Positions 3,328 to 25,039 of a DNA stretch of 64,000 nucleotides are shown here, in pieces. The stretch's first letter is position 1; every line of letters starts with the position of its first letter. The notes below the pieces were generated by a model, which saw nothing but the letters and a program-made list of their open reading frames with translations, did no database searches and was not told the DNA's origin. This stretch comes from Eledone cirrhosa (Eukaryota): positions 6,076,001 to 6,140,000 of the forward strand of contig OZ024759.1 in NCBI GenBank assembly GCA_964016885.1, written 5' to 3'. The translations under genes were made by a program, and so were the position numbers.

Positions 3328-3711
3328 CTTGCCAACCAGCTTGCTTCCTGCATCGCCCATGGCCGTTTTCAACGCCACGCCGGCAGCAATTCCAACTTCG
3401 GCTATAAGGTTGTGTCCACAGGCGTGTCCAATATCTGGTAGAGCATCGTACTCGCACATGATGGCGATGTGTGGACCTTTCCCTGCGCCGGTTGTTTCAA
3501 ATGTCGCCCGAAACGCTGTGGGAATTATATATTTTCTTTCAACTATGAGGCCATAATTCTCCAGAAAATCCGTCAATATATCATGAGCCTTGAACTCTTT
3601 AAACCCTAACTCAGGGTTTGTCCATATCTCTTTGCTAATGTCGGCGAGTTCTTGGGCGAAAATCTCATTAGTAAATATATCATGTACGAGAGCTTTAACG
3701 TCAATTTCCAT
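3328..3711 (-). CDS. PM20D2: Peptidase M20 domain-containing protein 2 (Xaa-Arg dipeptidase / ACY1L2), first coding exon (128 codons)
   Basis: Motifs IWTNPELGFKEFKAH, PTAFRA and EYDALPDIGHACGHNLIA are typical of the M20D/AbgB-like family. AAG|GTAAGA phase-0 donor at 3327; the ORF read-through past it is intronic. Confidence 0.92.
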
Positions 3712-14891: not shown

Positions 14892-15870
14892 CATGGATAT
14901 GTTGCCAGGAAGCTCCAGAGTGAGAGTAATATAGATAAGGAAGTAGTCTATCTTGGACCAACAACCGCTATATTGGCTCCCACTTTGAAGGATACGCTTT
15001 TGCAATCCAAGAACAGGAAATTAACACAAAATACCTGATTCACAAAAGAGATAGGGAGGCAAAACACCTAGATGTGATAACAAGTGCAAACTCTGCAGAA
15101 TTAACATCGAGGATATCACCCATGTCATCAGCAACTGTCCAAAGATGTCATCGCGGTACTATCTACCTACGAGGCATGATGTAGTGGCCAAAACACTGTA
15201 CGATGTAGTTCATAAAAAAGATAGCCCCGATAATAAACACATTAAAAGCTACAGCAATGTGGAAGACATACATATACATAATATGAAAGACTACTGGTGG
15301 AATGTTCCAGTAAAAACCCCAATAAAATGCAGGCATAACAGACCAGATATTATGATATGGGACAGGGAAAAGAAGGCAGGCACAGTAGTGGAAGTTAGCT
15401 GCCCAGCAGATGCCAATATAATATCAAAGATTAGTGAAAAGGAGAATATTTATGCAGAACTGATGAGAAATCTGCAGATACTCCACCCTGACTATACCTT
15501 CAGATTTATACCTGTGAATATTGGGGCACTGGGATATGTTAGTAACTGCCTCAATACAAATCTTGAGAAGCTAGGCTTCACAGAAACAGAAAGAACACAA
15601 CTAGTTAGGAAATTACAAGTACAATCCATTAATGGAACAGTAAAAATATGTAAAACATTCCAAAAATTTTGCATCTAATAACTGCATATACACATGTACA
15701 GATACAAAGCATATACACATGCACACATACAATAACATCCATGCATACACATACATACATATCTACCTAGTTGATGTTGTGTAAATTCCAATGAGAGAGT
15801 CTTGTGTCTATGTTAGAAACCGACTCTCTCTCTATTGGCAAAAATTTGTGAAATTATAAAACCAGAAGAA
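14892..15870 (+). mobile_element. 5'-truncated R4/Dong-like non-LTR retrotransposon (CCHC finger plus restriction-like endonuclease, stop at 15678, 3' UTR)
   Basis: FEGYAFAIQEQEI, CKLC..EDITHVISNC, RHD and RPDIMIWD...VVEVSCP..EKE..Y. Both flanks are (CATA)n. Confidence 0.85.
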
Positions 15871-17384: not shown

Positions 17385-18023
17385 CTAGGGCGGGTAAAAT
17401 TCCTGAGATCCATGGACGAGTTCTCTCCAGCGGTCTCTGTCCCTCATTATCGCTGCCGTGTCCTGCGTCTCCAACAGACCAGTGTCTGTCCTTAGGGCAT
17501 CAACATACGTTAACCTTGGTCTTCCTCTTCCAGTGTGTCCATGTAGGGGCTCCCACAGGAGCACTGAGTGCAATGTCAACTCTGGATGTCGGTGAGCATG
17601 TCCAGCTAACCTCAGTCTCCTCTGTGTCACTTTTGAGCTGACTTTTGGGAGGCTCCCATACAGCTCTGAGTTTTTCATCCTCAGTGTATACTGATTAATG
17701 TTCAGAGCCATCCTCAGCATTCTTGTGTAGCACCCATCCACCATCTGAGTGAGTTTCTTGGTCAGTGTCCAAGTCTCAGACCCATACAGCAGCACAGACT
17801 CCACTACAGCAATGAAGAGGCGGATTTTCAGGTCTTTACGAAGGTCCGACTTCCACACCAATCTCAAGCTGTGGCACGCCGCCCAGGCTTTGCTCTTCCT
17901 CTCAACCACATCATCTTCCGTATTCCCAATCTTTGCTCCCAAATACAGGAAGTCCTCAACCAATTCTAGCGGCTTCCTGCCTACATTAGTGATTCCCTCT
18001 GGCTTCTCAACATTCTCTACCAG
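17385..18023 (-). mobile_element. RTE-clade LINE, 3' portion of ORF (open to stop)
   Basis: VEDFLYLG, ESVLLYGSETW, RRLRLAGH and GRPR motifs. Confidence 0.9.
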
Positions 18024-18241
18024 TGGACTATTGTATGCGCCTTGCACTGGAGAAACGCCAGGACTCTGGGTTTACTGTAACACCGGCTCAGAGCAGGAGA
18101 GTTAAGGCGAAAAAGATATCAGATGCTGAATTTGCCGACGACATAGTTTTGGTGACAAATACAGTGAAGGAGGCAGAGGATCTGATGCAGGAGGTTGAGA
18201 CCGTGTCGATGAGTGTGGGGCTGAGAATGAATGAGACTAAA

Positions 18242-18243
<2 letters not shown>
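18023..18243 (+). mobile_element. Inverted 5' segment of the same RTE LINE (RT catalytic FADD region)
   Basis: GFTVTPAQSRR..ISDAEFADDIVL...GLRMNETKT normally lies immediately upstream of the minus-strand part. Confidence 0.85.
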
Positions 18244-18282
<39 letters not shown>

Positions 18283-18390
18283 AATGTATGTATAGTATAT
18301 TTGTATGTTTATCTAAAAACATTTTGAAGACCATTCGCTATGAATTTTAAAGTAGTGACTATGTCACTTATTCTCGGCTGGCAGAGGTCT

Positions 18391-18433
18391 ACAGTCCTGA
18401 TGAAGGGTAATGACCTAGAAACATGTTGATTGT
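18391..18433 (+). ncRNA. Type I hammerhead ribozyme motif (HHR1), palindromic helix III
   Basis: ACAGTC-CTGATGA-aGGGTaatgACCTa-GAAA-CATG-TT/GATTGT. Helix I extends through GAGG/CCTC and CTGGC/GCCAG. Confidence 0.75.
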
Positions 18434-18559
18434 TCCTCAAAGCCAGTTTTGAACAAACAGGTGACGATCGGTCACCAGCACAACTTCAAATCGGGATCGT
18501 TTGTTTACAAACGAATCGAACATTATTATTAATGTTCGATATAACCCTACGTATATATA

Positions 18560-18785
18560 GGTAATTTACTATTTTACGTTCGTAAACTAAACGATTCCCG
18601 AATGTCAATAAAAAAAAAAAACTTTATTAAAATTAATACAATAAACTTTATTAAAATTAATACCTGATACTACTTTTGCAGCATTTTCAATTAGCAGTAA
18701 TTTGTATTAATTTTAATAAAGTTTTTTTTTTTTTCATTGACATTCGTCAATCGTTTAGTTTACGAACGTAAAATAGTAAATTACC
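18560..18785. mobile_element. MITE-like foldback with ~80-90 bp TIRs, flanked by TA
   Basis: GGTAATTTACTATTTTACGTTCGTAAACTAAACGATT... is mirrored by ...AATCGTTTAGTTTACGAACGTAAAATAGTAAATTACC. Confidence 0.75.
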
Positions 18786-19199
18786 TATATATGTATATAT
18801 GTGTGTGTATATATATGTATATATATATATACATATATATACTCCAATATTGTTTGTTGAGTGCTTTATATCAGTTATAAAAATATTTTTAAGTTTGTTG
18901 TATCCCAACAAATTAAATATAACCTAGGGTGAGAAATAAAATTCTAATTACATATATATATATATAAGAAGAAATTAAAAGATGGTTAAAAAAGTTCCAT
19001 GTATTTTATTATGCGCATTTCAAACAACAAATATATATACTCCTATCCAATAAACTGTTGAGTGCTACTTAACCGATATTTGCATTGCTTTATTGTTCTA
19101 CAATAAAACTCACCTCACATATCTGTGTATAAAAGAGTGAAAGCACCGATTCTTTGCTTAAACTTTAATCTGCACTAATAATAAATATTTGCTGTACGG

Positions 19200-19594: not shown

Positions 19595-19688
19595 GCCTCG
19601 GTAGCGCAGTAGGCAGCGCGTCAGTCTCATAATCTAACTAAAATCTCGAGCTATCTGAAGGTCGTGAGTTCGATCCTCACCCGGGGCA
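19595..19688 (+). tRNA. Elongator tRNA-Met(CAT) with a 21-nt intron (19632-19652)
   Basis: Acceptor GCCTCGG/CCGGGGC+A, anticodon CAT at 19628-19630, T loop TTCGATC. The spliced product is 73 nt and nearly identical to metazoan tRNA-Met-e. TATA-like tract ~25-30 nt upstream. Confidence 0.95.
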
Positions 19689-20320: not shown

Positions 20321-20389
20321 GATATATATATATTGTTATACTTTGGGAGGGTCATGTTGCCAATAACAAACACACGCACCAGGTACTTT

Positions 20390-22175
20390 CACTCCGGAGC
20401 CGTTCGCAATCACGCGTTCCATTCGACAGGGATGCCCTCTCTCCTCCATTCTGTATGTATTGACTCTAGAGCCACTACTGCGGAAATTGGAGCTGTTGCA
20501 GGGCATCCCCCTAGAACCGGGACTGCGCAAAGCGGCGTCGGCTTATGCCGACGACGTGACAGTAATGGTGTCGAGCACCTCGGAAATCGGGGTGATCGGC
20601 AACATACTGAAAGAATACGAAACGCTGACGGGAGCAAAACTAAACCCAGACAAGTCTGTCGGTTTGCAACTCGGTACGTGGAGAGGCAAACCGATGACAT
20701 CCGACAGCGTCGTTGGACGCTGGACGGACGGACCGGTGAAATTGCTCGGGGTCTGGTTCGGTCCAGACCTCCAGGTGGAGAAAAACTGGAACGAGGTCAC
20801 GGCCAAGGTGTTTGCACTCACTCAGAAGTGGGCAGAGTGCAAACTGTCCTTGAAAGGTCGAGCGGAGGTGGCGAACACTTTCATAGCGTCCGTCATCTAC
20901 TACCGCTTGACTGTCGTGCCTTGTCCCCGTGAACACCTCGCCAAGATGGAACGCATGCTCTTTCAGTTTCTGTGGAAGAAGCAGGCTCCGCTGGTGAGAA
21001 GATCCGTCTGCTGTCAGCACCCTTCCAACGGAGGGCTGGGAATGCCGTGGCTGATTATGCGCAAACATGCGCTAAGGCTGCGGCATCTCCAGGTATTCCT
21101 CACCGACCCCCAACCGGTGTGGGCACCGTTTGTGAGACAGGCTTTCCCACAGCTCGTCTCGCTAACGGAGCTGCAGTCCTGGGTGAAGAAAAGACCGAAA
21201 ACGATGGGCGCCTGGCACATTGAATGCGCTCAGGCGCTCACAGTCCTCTGGCAAGCGGGCGCAGCAATCAGTGGAGACTCCACTTCGACATTCTATAGAG
21301 GGATTGTACGTTACAAGGGCGACGACGTGCTCGGAGAGACTCTGGACGTCGAAGACGATGAGCTCACCAGTATGTTTGGTAGGACTTTCCGCCCGGGACC
21401 TATGGACAACTTCCAGAGGTCCCTGGCCTGGCAGTGCTACCGAGGAGCTCTACCGGTTCGTGACAAGATCTACAGGCACGGACGCCCTGGCAGGGATCCT
21501 TCCAAGAGGACGTGTCCAAGATGTGCGCAGGCCATTGAAACAGTTCTGCACGCAATTGTACACTGCCCGGGCGTAAGCGACCTGTGGAACTATGCAGAAC
21601 AACTGCTGTCGCGTATGGGACAAATACAGTTGACTTCCGAGTCCATAGTAAGGATCAAACCGCCAGACTCTTTCAAAAACGAAAGAGAGGCGGTTTTCCT
21701 CTGTACGGTGGCTATGGTGAAAGAAGTTATATGGTGGACGAGGTTGAGAGGACTGAGGACAGATGCCTTTCTCTCCGGACAACAATTGATTCCCTTCTTT
21801 AAGTATCACTTTAGAAGGAGAATCAGGGTGGAGAGAGAGGTACTGCACCCCAGTAAATTTACTGAAAGGTGGGTGAATGAAGCGAAAATGGCCCGAGTGA
21901 TTGGGCCTTCTCTGTTTATAAGCCTGTAGGTTGAGGAAGAGAGCAAAAGGAAGAAAGGAGCACTTGCACAACACGCTCCTCGAGTTGAGGGTTGTTCTAT
22001 CGACGGGGTATTAAACAACCCATTTGTGGCGCCTCCCCCCTATTGGGGATTTCGATTGTTGAAATTGTTTGTTTGTTTTTATATTTTTTTACACGACTGT
22101 ATGTAAAATCCCCGGCATGTCTTTGTATTGTCCCCTTTCTTGTTGCGCCCTTGTGGCTAATAAAGAAATCAATAT
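20390..22175 (+). mobile_element. 5'-truncated Tx1/L1-clade LINE: open ORF2 from the RT domain to the stop at 21929, plus 3' UTR
   Basis: SIRQGCPLS, YADD, LSLKGR, GGLG and zf-RVT CPRC..ETVLHAIVHC. GC/CpG-rich against the flanks. AATAAA near 22159. Confidence 0.92.
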
Positions 22176-22366
22176 TAATATTTTCTCTCTCTCTCTTTCT
22201 TCCCTATCTTTCCCCAGCGTCATTTAAATAAACGGTTGTTTTTTCAATTATTTACACATTCATTTGCATATTCACACATAACTTTAATGTTTCCACTATC
22301 CAGTGAACTTCTGACCGATAAGGTATGATTTTCATGGGTACCTCTTTATTTATAAAACAAACTTTG

Positions 22367-22431
22367 TATTTTATCTGATGAAAGCGCACCAAGATTGGGT
22401 TGGTTGCCCTCGAAATATATATAATAAAATA
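22367..22431 (+). ncRNA. Type I hammerhead motif (HHR2), long helix II
   Basis: TATTTTAT-CTGATGA-[AAGCGCACCAA..TTGGTTGCCCTC]-GAAA-TATATA-TA/ATAAAATA. Confidence 0.65.
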
Positions 22432-22537
22432 AATATGGTTTTATAAATATAGTTTACATTTATTTAATATCATTGAAAATTTAAGTAAGTTAATTTTTTT
22501 GAAAAATTTTTTTTAAAGAAATTTTCTTATTTTACGT

Positions 22538-22600
<63 letters not shown>

Positions 22601-22604
<4 letters not shown>

Positions 22605-23090
22605 ATTAGAATACTGGAGCGTGTTTGAGTCAAACACCCTCTTCGTATTATAGAAATGACAGTAAAAGGTATAGCGCAATGCAGTTAAACAGAGCCGAAA
22701 AATTAAGAGAGTAAAACAAAGAATCCTTTAATACATCAAAAGTTTTTATTAGCCGACAATGTTTCGTCCTATTAAGGACTCATCAGGGCAATCAAAACAA
22801 CAAGAAGTAATTTCGGCAGATACAAGCCAGAAACTCTGAAGAATATGGGGTTTACATTTACTAATGTCTTACAAGGATATAGGATAATAAAAATGAGGAT
22901 AAAACTATAATAACTAAGGATGTAGATGACATTAAGAACCATATTACAAATATGGTCCAAAGTCACCAACTTAAATCTAAACAAATTTGGTTATATAGAA
23001 CAGGAATTATATATAACACAGTATAATACATTCTAATAATAATATATCTATACCAACACTGAAATTCCAAATCAAAAATCAAAAGGTGCG
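22601..23090 (-). mobile_element. Penelope-like pseudo-LTR or non-autonomous element inserted in (TA)n
   Basis: AT-rich segment between (TA)n tracts carrying a canonical hammerhead followed directly by AATAAA. Confidence 0.6.
22752..22789 (-). ncRNA. Canonical minimal type I hammerhead (HHR3)
   Basis: GCC-CTGATGA-GTCCTtaatAGGAC-GAAA-CATTG-TC/GGC with a GUC cleavage triplet. Confidence 0.88.
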
Positions 23091-23142
23091 ATATATATAT
23101 ATATATATATATATATTTGGATTTAATGCTCTGAAATAGCGA

Positions 23143-23258
23143 TATATATGTGAAGACAAACATAGAATATTCGAAAATATTCTGTATGTTTATAATAAAT
23201 GTTTATTATAAACATACAGAATATTTTCGAATATTCTATGTTTGTCTTCATATATATA
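23143..23258. repeat. Near-perfect palindrome, ~56-bp arms
   Basis: TGAAGACAAACATAGAATATTCGAAAATATTCTGTATGTTTATAATAAA-TG-reverse complement. Confidence 0.9.
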
Positions 23259-23540
23259 TATATATATAAACGGAAAAAATGAAACGAAATTTCATTTCCC
23301 ACTCTTACGGAAATGTAAGTAACGGCTGTTACTTAAATATAAGTATGTACACGTACATACATATATGTATACAGACGTACAGTAGTATGTATATATATAT
23401 ACATACATGCACACATATATATATATGTACGTATGGATTCACCGAACATTTATTATAATGCTTGGTGTAAACAAACATCCCGTATTAAGCCGTAGTGTCT
23501 AGCAACCATCGTTGCTCGTTTGTTCAACACTGACAAAGAA

Positions 23541-23583
23541 ACGCTGTACTAGTTTCAAGCTTATTAGCTATCGTCAGCAACGT
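23541..23583 (-). ncRNA. Type I hammerhead motif (HHR4), palindromic helix III
   Basis: ACGTTG-CTGACGA-tAGCTaataAGCTt-GAAA-CTAG-TA/CAGCGT. Confidence 0.75.
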
Positions 23584-23822
23584 ATACCTTCCTGCCAGAT
23601 TGTTGAACGTATATACTTACCTTATGCATATTAACGGGTAAATCAATAATTATTAACCTTATGCATATTAACGGGTTAATCGTTAATTATTAACGGCTGA
23701 GTAGCCCAATTTGCATATCGATTGGGTTAATCGGCCGATTAACCCATATATATATGTGTGCATGTATATATATATACATACTACTGTACGTCTGTATACA
23801 TATATGTATGTATGTGTACATA

Positions 23823-23858
<36 letters not shown>

Positions 23859-24628
23859 AGTAAATAATCGAGAATCAGAATTTCGGCCCACGAAATAACG
23901 ATAAACAAACTTCGACATGTGTAGCAGAGGGCTCAATAGTTTGGATGAACCAGAGCTATAACTATCGTTAAAATACCAACACATAAAGACGATGCTTAGA
24001 ATCAATCGCACAACCGAAAAAAACGACCAGGAAAATTCGGGTCATTCAAATAAAAAATTAATAAATTAATAGATTAAATGAATGTAAAAAACTCACCCGG
24101 ACCCGCTAGAAGGATGTTAAATTCTAGCTTTTTGGGTTTCTGCAGTTCCTTAATCAATTACTGTCAGCCCACATAAAAAAAATATCTGACTTCTAGTAAA
24201 GATGAACGTGGAACGTGCTTTCTCAACGGATGTTTCGTTCAAGAATACAGGGGTCCTGTTACTGGACGCACGTGTAGTCCAGCAAGGGACTATATATGGC
24301 GAAAGAATTCAGTAAGTGTAAATTTTGTAAGAATACAAAAAATCACAAATCGAATAAGAGTTCTCAGCAGACGTGTTAAAATAAACAAGAGCTATTCCCC
24401 AGTCAATAAGATCAGCTAAAAAATCAATAAAATTAACTGGTCAATAGCTAAAGTCTGGAGATTAATACAAGTAAATAATATATATATATCTATATGTAGA
24501 GGTTATATTTAATTTGTTGGGATACAACAAGCAAAATATTTTTATAACTGATATAAAGCACTCAACAAATTATTGGAGTAAATATACAATATATTAACAA
24601 ATGGAAACTATATTTATAAAACCATATT

Positions 24629-24694
24629 TATTTCATTATACATATTTCAAGGGCCACCAAGCCAAACTATGATGCGCTTTCATCAGATAAAATA
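24629..24694 (-). ncRNA. Type I hammerhead motif (HHR5), mirror of HHR6
   Basis: Reverse complement of 24796-24861 with one substitution in helix II. Confidence 0.65.
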
Positions 24695-24795
24695 TAATAT
24701 AGGTTAGTTTTATAAATAAATATTGACATACCCTGAAAAAATACAACCATTTTTCAGGGTATGTCAATATTTATTTATAAAACTAACCTATATTA

Positions 24796-24861
24796 TATTT
24801 TATCTGATGAAAGCGCACCATAGTTTGGCTTGGTGGCCCTTGAAATATGTATAATGAAATA
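24796..24861 (+). ncRNA. Type I hammerhead motif (HHR6), same family as HHR2
   Basis: TATTTTAT-CTGATGA-AAGcgCACCAtagtttggctTGGTGgccCTT-GAAA-TATGTA-TA/ATGAAATA. Confidence 0.68.
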
Positions 24862-25039
24862 AATATGGTTTTATAAATATAGTTTCCATTTGTTAATATA
24901 TTGTATATGTATATATATATTGGTTGGCATGAAAACTGAATTGAAGACAGCAAGTGTTGATGATAATTAATAAAATGATTTACTGGCGGTTTTAATTAAA
25001 TATATTAATGATTCTAAAACGGTTAAAATTGTACATATA

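Follow-up and report, generated by a model that had tools for sequence, protein, structure and literature searches.

Copy B of a repeated RNA module (minus strand, 23430–23598; coordinates refer to the window, i.e. the whole analyzed stretch of 64,000 nt from Eledone cirrhosa) carries a type I hammerhead motif with CUGACGA…GAAA, a GUA triplet, and a palindromic helix III. The motif and the helices of this copy are real. It is reasonably probable that B belongs to an octopodid repeat family of many copies, being a member that has decayed slightly, and that the type I hammerhead of this family has U·U throughout. The family is likely a retrozyme-type non-autonomous Penelope derivative; its RNA would be a weak cleaver as a monomer and a better one as a dimer. 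The U·U variant is not new, since it has an active precedent in the axolotl. The locus and the homologous copy A comprise the following features, each with its basis, where one applies, in parentheses.

23250–23268, no strand assigned: part of the B locus
23266–23333, minus: downstream piece ending in a 14-mer, the putative start of a permuted unit (loose ends of runs X1, X4, and X5)
23334–23424, no strand assigned: TA-rich arm downstream of the module, with an inverted copy upstream (93% over 91 nt with 23746–23832)
23442–23465, minus: 3' hairpin of 9 bp, one pair broken in B (A/B comparison, X1 tally)
23467–23527, minus: two 10-nt blocks (23527–23518 and 23476–23467), identical in A and B, 7 nt of them complementary (alignment)
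23494–23531, minus: strands of the claimed pseudoknot (23531–23526 with 23499–23494), unsupported before the cut (fold)
23501–23516, minus: hairpin P3, AGCAAC/GUUGCU, in A GGUGAC/GUCACC (A/B covariation; P 0.8–1.0)
23522–23608, minus: distal helix I and its extension (fold)
23541–23583, minus: proximal helix I, 6 bp, 23583–23578 with 23546–23541 (A/B covariation, family variation)
23547–23577, minus: catalytic core, helix II, and minimal helix III, GUA triplet, predicted cut at 23547/23546 (sequence)
23548–23553, minus: helix III palindrome ACUAGU, too short for closing alone, a predicted dimer helix (sequence)
23557–23570, minus: helix II, the U10.1·U11.1 mismatch followed by A-U, G-C, C-G, and U-A (fold)
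23609–23737, minus: upstream family sequence with a 59-nt insertion (contig joints, tandem duplication)
23724–23832, plus: fold-back palindrome (23724–23745) at the 5' breakpoint, then the inverted TA-rich arm (23746–23832)
18378–18562, plus: copy A, a diverged homolog of B with A·A at 10.1/11.1 and a GUU triplet (nhmmer, alignment)

On the minus strand, 23577–23547 reads CUGACGA, a 14-nt helix II segment, GAAA, CUAG, and UA, in agreement with the sequence-only reading, which had described here a minus-strand core CTGACGA...GAAA-CTAG-TA with a GUA triplet. In this numbering, C3 to A9 occupy 23577 to 23571, U10.1 lies at 23570 and U11.1 at 23557, G12 to A15.1 correspond to 23556–23553, C15.2-U-A-G16.2 to 23552–23549, U16.1 to 23548, and A17 to 23547. 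Copy B conforms to the type I core formula CUGANGA…GAAA…UH. Helices I (open), II, and III are present round the core; I and II covary, and III consists only of a 6-nt palindrome, a trait of animal motifs of the dimer type. The usual Watson-Crick pair at 10.1–11.1 is absent, being replaced by U·U in B and its family and by A·A in A, so that the first pair of helix II is mismatched in both copies, as had been noted from the sequence. Outward from U10.1·U11.1, the pair probabilities of helix II in B are 0.0, 0.94, 1.0, 1.0, and 0.9. Distal helix I pairs 23587–23591 with 23539–23535 and is extended by two stems, CUGGC (23598–23594) with GUCAG (23534–23530) and 23608–23601 with 23529–23522, both with a pair probability of about 1.0.

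Copy A is the sole homolog of B within the window, 5 kb off and on the opposite strand. Its core lies at 18397 (plus strand), with A10.1 at 18404 and A11.1 at 18417, and the place of helix III is taken by another palindrome, ACAUGU. The alignment relates 23598 to about 23420 of B to 18378–18562 of A (nhmmer E=4e-13; blastn 68% over 187 nt). A pattern of the core plus two downstream blocks occurs at exactly two places in the window, A and B, a number reached by none of 100 shuffles. Among 31 listed pairs, eight show changes on both sides between A and B, three are changed on one side, and two are broken. Both sides differ in three of the six pairs of helix I, one of the four of helix II (with one further one-sided change), three of the six of hairpin P3, and one of the nine of the 3' hairpin, while the helix I extension has one of five pairs changed, one-sidedly. 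The only broken pairs are 10.1/11.1 and one at 23463 in the 3' hairpin of B. These eight double-sided changes support the helices of copy B, and the downstream stems that had been proposed as common to both copies, P3 and the 3' hairpin, do align and covary. Directly 3' of copy A, at 18553–18792, lies a MITE-like inverted repeat with 91-nt arms (94.5%) between TA runs.

For the family as a whole, contigs of public runs were used for the tally in place of whole-genome copies. A search of public runs gave 18 rows in 14 studies that contain part of the stretch, only one of which contains half or more of it; no RNA run was among those listed. Contigs from four of the 23 listed runs were placed on 23432–23744 (313 nt) at a likeness of at least 80%, and differences were listed from 5%. 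Run X1 yielded 4,081 contigs, whose depth is not a copy number and which do not necessarily stem from the species of the window; X4, X5, and X7, labelled as other organisms, yielded 6, 25, and 8, all counts being confined to contigs at least 80% alike to B. In X1, 1,034 contigs are at least 99% alike to B, 1,419 lie at 95–99%, 1,283 at 90–95%, and 345 under 90%, and this spread points to many distinct copies of the family. Position 10.1 (23570) has no variant row in any of the four runs. The A at 11.1 (23557) that would restore a standard pair accounts for 0.14% of X1 depth (34 contigs), and a single contig apiece carries it in X5 (0.9%) and X7 (5.9%); no alternative letter reaches 5% at 10.1 or 11.1 across the X1 contigs. 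The sequence-only reading had taken the mismatch as a family trait rather than decay and had suggested checking for a normal pair at this position across copies; for the U·U of B's family, fixed among 4,081 X1 contigs, this has been borne out. A minor variant with A11.1 and U17, like copy A, is represented by two contigs, one from X5 (depth 11.3) and one from X7 (depth 2), its letter at 10.1 being unreadable. The A·A of copy A may be a subfamily trait or decay, since the tally is limited to B-like contigs and A is too diverged from B to be among them.

The remaining variation in X1 is distributed in a way that spares the core, where no letter varies at 5% or more save the free position 7. Four sites in 23541–23583 reach this level: position 7 (5%), loop II (25%), 23580 (12% and 24%), and 23544 (48%). 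The last two are partners of one helix I pair, and their letters, unphased in X1, permit U·G, G·U, A-U, and U-A. Family variation is what selection on the fold predicts, with statistics that are post hoc and weak (P about 0.06 for no variable site among 21 constrained sites, and about 0.09 for two sites being partners). Two changes are private to B: at 23539, 99.6% of X1 depth has the other letter, which strengthens the distal helix, and at 23463, 96% has the pairing letter. The insertion at 23629–23687 is a local 37-nt duplication that family contigs skip, joining 23628 to 23688 in three of the four runs. The tally, the private helix-weakening changes, and this insertion together mark U·U as a property of the family and B as a slightly decayed copy of it. 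Standing alone and carrying its private changes, B itself is probably a poor cleaver.

Outside the octopods, the axolotl hammerhead HHR_Amex2, with about 60,000 copies, also begins helix II with a U·U mismatch and self-cleaves, 22% in 1 h as a monomer and much more as a dimer; circular RNAs were reported from tissues, and the motif is classed as canonical type I (PMC7229834). The pair G10.1–C11.1 has been termed highly conserved (PMC4209133). A pattern scan of metagenome contigs, allowing A or U at 10.1 and 11.1 (G-C excluded) and A, C, or U at 17, gave 107 matches in 106 loci. In seven of them helix II pairs 2–4 are intact and helix I has a run of at least four, and all seven are U·U; A-U, U-A, and A·A are absent among these well-folded matches, and none of the ten A·A matches among the 107 folded as a hammerhead. 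The seven comprise five distinct cores, all GUA (A17), or six of six counting that of B; as the pattern left out G-C, the U·U count is no frequency among all hammerheads, and the link between U·U and GUA could be explained by shared ancestry. The core of L018 differs from that of B by one letter. In L018, L027, L068, and L109 (cores at 601, 601, 601, and 301), (TAACCC)n lies about 60 nt past the U·U/GUA core, a layout described for telomeric Penelope-like elements (PMC8557442). As regards a possible tertiary contact between loops I and II, eight of eight aligned motifs have a U in the bulge of helix I, and the A's in loop II are partly forced by the search pattern. The downstream blocks of B and A are unmatched in the metagenome U·U loci, where nhmmer matches span the hammerhead only. 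The pattern of core plus downstream blocks has no match in viral or metagenome contigs, and the loose core pattern has 14 matches in viral contigs, none with both helices.

A shifted register, with the U as a bulged 9a, fails by inspection in both copies, the third pair being C·C in B and the first G·A in A. It does accommodate a further 52 T…T matches from the metagenomes, of which 45 have a single core; all 52 were excluded from the U·U count. The 45 (L015–L117), on contigs of one assembly, form a repeat family whose hammerhead has one helix II core in a bulged-U, G·U register and two alternative helix III palindromes.

In Rfam, Hammerhead_1 (RF00163) has the same topology as B, yet neither B (309 nt, no match of any kind at E<=10) nor A is matched by it at that threshold, and both stay below its gathering score of 34 bits. 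A match of A to snR84 (21 bits against a gathering score of 109) was taken as chance, and miRNA matches are TA/CA microsatellite hairpins. A canonical type I hammerhead with G10.1–C11.1 and GUC lies at 22748–22792 on the same strand, 760 nt downstream of B; it scores 31.7 bits with Hammerhead_1, has no second copy in the window, and shares no homology with the flanks of B. Since Rfam misses both copies while scoring this neighbor, one part of an earlier inference, that an atypical hammerhead here would escape standard searches, stands; the variant itself is not new, U·U hammerheads of the axolotl having been published.

The flanks of B bear on the kind of unit it belongs to. Family contigs that run past 23737 (loose ends of X1, X4, and X5) contain the 14-mer lying just upstream of 23737. 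This 14-mer occurs once in the window, at 23267–23280 on the same strand, 150 nt past the 3' end of B, with 0.01 occurrences expected. By this one match of 14–15 nt, 23737 to 23266 would be one turn, about 16 nt short, of a circular or tandem unit of approximately 430 nt, and the locus suggests a permuted monomer of that length between (TA)n tracts beside an inverted repeat. The TA-rich arm could be a host palindrome or a MITE, as at the 3' flank of A, and another long palindrome (23145–23250) lies just past the (TA)n tract at the downstream end of B. There is no tandem array at the B locus. GC content is 0.29 in 22001–24000, retroelement fragments surround B, and an ANAPC1 exon lies 4 kb from it on the opposite strand. 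B has no frame of at least 100 aa, and 22 frames (6 + 16) scanned with Pfam revealed no RT or GIY-YIG family beside it; 15 of the 16 short frames round B have no Pfam hit at all, the sixteenth being an RT fragment at 17993–18280.

Three alternative accounts were weighed, one of which concerns the domain downstream of the core and is compatible with a retrozyme-type repeat. Here, AGUGU/ACACU would cross AACAAAC/GUUUGUU round P3 as a functional pseudoknot, forming only once the cut frees the 5' strand and acting as a switch or an RT-binding signal, a doubtful proposal. The segments AGTGT/ACACT and AGTT/AACT are present as the sequence-only reading wrote them, and the geometry is possible. In both uncut copies, however, helix I continues outward (CUGGC with GYCAG, in B plus a further 8 bp, P about 1.0) and thereby occupies the 5' strand, leaving the proposed stem with P=0.0. 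After the cut, AGUGUU/GACACU is predicted as an ordinary stem in B (about 0.6), its probability in A remaining 0.0, and the stem between the 10-nt blocks has a probability of at most 0.10 in all four folds; ViennaRNA, which was used here, models no pseudoknots, so the two stems were scored separately. Equally long Watson-Crick runs arise in 25% and 59% of 5,000 shuffles, a complementarity no greater than chance would give. Among loose ends read by eye, the variants in X4 and X7 differ on the 3' strand yet keep pairing, and both 10-nt blocks are identical in A and B; against this, ACACT is missing from one consensus of X1 loose ends (built from 23 contigs with a median of 14 letters, its far part weak), 24% of X1 depth has a one-sided change at 23518, and neither stem shows a double-sided change. 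The covarying pseudoknot claimed earlier is thus unsupported by these models and would be possible only after the cut. P3 itself has a third paired version, read by eye in the loose ends of all four runs. HDV-like ribozymes have a nested double pseudoknot with a 3-bp P3, a 7-nt L3, and P1.1. The downstream domain, with a P3 of 6 bp, a loop of 4–5 nt, and no Rfam match, was rejected as such. A pseudoknot-containing hammerhead was likewise rejected, helix II being a plain hairpin (P 0.8–1.0): members of that published class, which resemble the proposal for B in combining a hammerhead core and a pseudoknot, have the knot in place of helix II and retain G10.1–C11.1, whereas the knot proposed for B lies 3' of the cut (PMC11300833). 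A wider version, in which U10.1·U11.1 and A17 form a widespread, co-adapted Penelope-lineage subtype missed by Rfam, and in which the cut in the octopodid family flips the downstream RNA from extended helix I to a pseudoknot recruiting the telomerase-related Penelope RT, is decidedly improbable.

The other two accounts concern the origin of the family. B would be a truncated pseudo-LTR of an autonomous Penelope-like element (PLE) with its ORF elsewhere, the hammerhead processing the tandem PLE transcript. PLEs characteristically leave inverted 5'-truncated copies and target (TA)n, and B matches such insertions in its (TA)n flanks, its fold-back junction, the inverted partial repeat, and the one-sided extension (PMC8557442), with inverted copy and (TA)n target present in outline and the inverted arm possibly being host DNA. 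Some metagenome U·U cores, moreover, adjoin telomeric repeats, and recently active Penelope families have been reported for Octopus vulgaris (PMC13282606). What makes this origin unlikely is that family sequence from upstream of B recurs downstream of it, implying a short unit, that no PLE ORF is among the frames scanned nearby, and that a 6-bp helix I and a 4-bp helix II without a 9a bulge are unlike PLE minimal hammerheads (PMC4209133); the latter's extra 9a, G10.1–C11.1, long helix II, and short helix I are not those of B. The last account takes the ribozyme to be dead, U·U being a defect of a source copy that was multiplied passively, in the manner of a SINE. Fixation by itself shows no activity, and the fixed letter can equally descend from a dead source copy; G10.1–C11.1 is highly conserved elsewhere (PMC4209133), copy A has a different mismatch with the rarer GUU triplet, and a dimer of B cores is predicted to misfold. 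Yet variation within the family spares the core and, in helix I, is of a compensatory kind, and U·U occurs in five distinct metagenome cores with intact helices and in the active axolotl family (PMC7229834), which renders a dead ribozyme very improbable indeed.

As a retrozyme-type repeat, by contrast, the family would work like a non-LTR retrozyme. Tandem source transcripts would form a single helix III from their ACUAGU palindromes and be cut after GUA, the monomers of about 430 nt would be ligated or circularized, and a Penelope-like RT/endonuclease acting in trans would reverse-transcribe them into (TA)n sites. That B spans its own cut site intact and is followed by sequence that lies upstream in the family would be accounted for by a ligated or multimeric template. 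U·U most likely reduces monomer activity without abolishing it, as in HHR_Amex2. Motifs with a short palindromic helix III cleave as dimers (PMC6765202; PMC4209133), GUA is a natural, somewhat slower triplet (PMC1636495), and one PLE hammerhead required its protein for cleavage (PMC11167929). Animal retrozymes have been proposed as non-autonomous PLE derivatives and also occur as solo monomers (bioRxiv 10.64898/2026.07.22.740005). Against this reading, a co-fold of two 44-nt B cores misfolded, the cores of A giving the helix III dimer, and no autonomous partner element was found in the frames near B.

Among known systems, the closest is the axolotl HHR_Amex2 of retrozyme Rtz_353, alike in being a type I, high-copy animal repeat with U·U at the helix II base and a 2-bp helix III (Cervera and de la Peña, 2020, PMC7229834). 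The helix III of B has a 2-nt palindromic loop, that of the axolotl a tetraloop, and B has a long helix I extension and downstream hairpins of its own; activity, circles, and tandems are demonstrated for the axolotl element. With non-LTR animal retrozymes (PMC7229834; bioRxiv 10.64898/2026.07.22.740005) it shares a type I hammerhead of canonical size, the lack of a detected ORF, low GC, and a self-paired RNA (z=-5.6 for B, inflated by TA-rich hairpins), and solo monomers occur in such families; B differs in that its locus has no tandem and its putative length is slightly above the 170–400 nt first described. The hammerheads in PLE pseudo-LTRs, including telomeric Athena/Terminon elements (PMC4209133; PMC8557442), resemble B in the palindromic minimal helix III, the inverted partial copy, and the (TA)n target, and the metagenome U·U cores in lying beside (TAACCC)n, but near B there is no detected RT/GIY-YIG ORF and no telomeric repeat, and B lacks the 9a bulge and long helix II.

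The surroundings of B contain further hammerhead-like sequences. A third family, whose helix II segment is long and whose triplet is apparently AUA, is present at 22375–22415 (plus), 24645–24686 (minus), and 24804–24845 (plus); the last two are arms of a 162-nt, 99% inverted repeat (24579–24911) and are 86–87% alike to the first. Together with A, B, and the canonical motif, six hammerhead-type cores fall within 6.5 kb. Of the remaining window, 19595–19688 (plus) is a tRNA gene with a CAU anticodon and an intron-like insert of about 23 nt (Rfam, 54.4 bits), 20367–21929 (plus) a 520-aa frame with RT plus zf-RVT, accompanied by RT pieces round 17385–18280, and 30514–64000 a 108-bp satellite in 313 copies with 94% matches. 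The exon at 3328–3711 is 85% identical to a peptidase of Octopus bimaculoides and 65% to one of Argonauta, which marks the host as an octopodid. A 207-aa frame at 15055–15678 (plus) without a Pfam hit resembles a restriction-like endonuclease of non-LTR elements.

In the literature searched, no paper on octopus hammerheads, no description of B's family, and no cephalopod retrozyme was found, and in the available part of PMC13282606 the word 'ribozyme' occurs 0 times. For the giant squid, 235 Rfam Hammerhead_1 loci have been reported (PMC6962438). Rfam-based counts of cephalopod hammerheads overlook a U·U subtype, which is also seen in unrelated contigs from metagenomes, and the U·U/GUA pairing bears on how much the hammerhead core tolerates. 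The importance is modest, the variant itself having a published active precedent. For the octopods, an abundant hammerhead-bearing repeat family is indicated, and the conserved stretch of its RNA that follows the cut may serve as a cis-signal through which Penelope-like RTs mobilize it.
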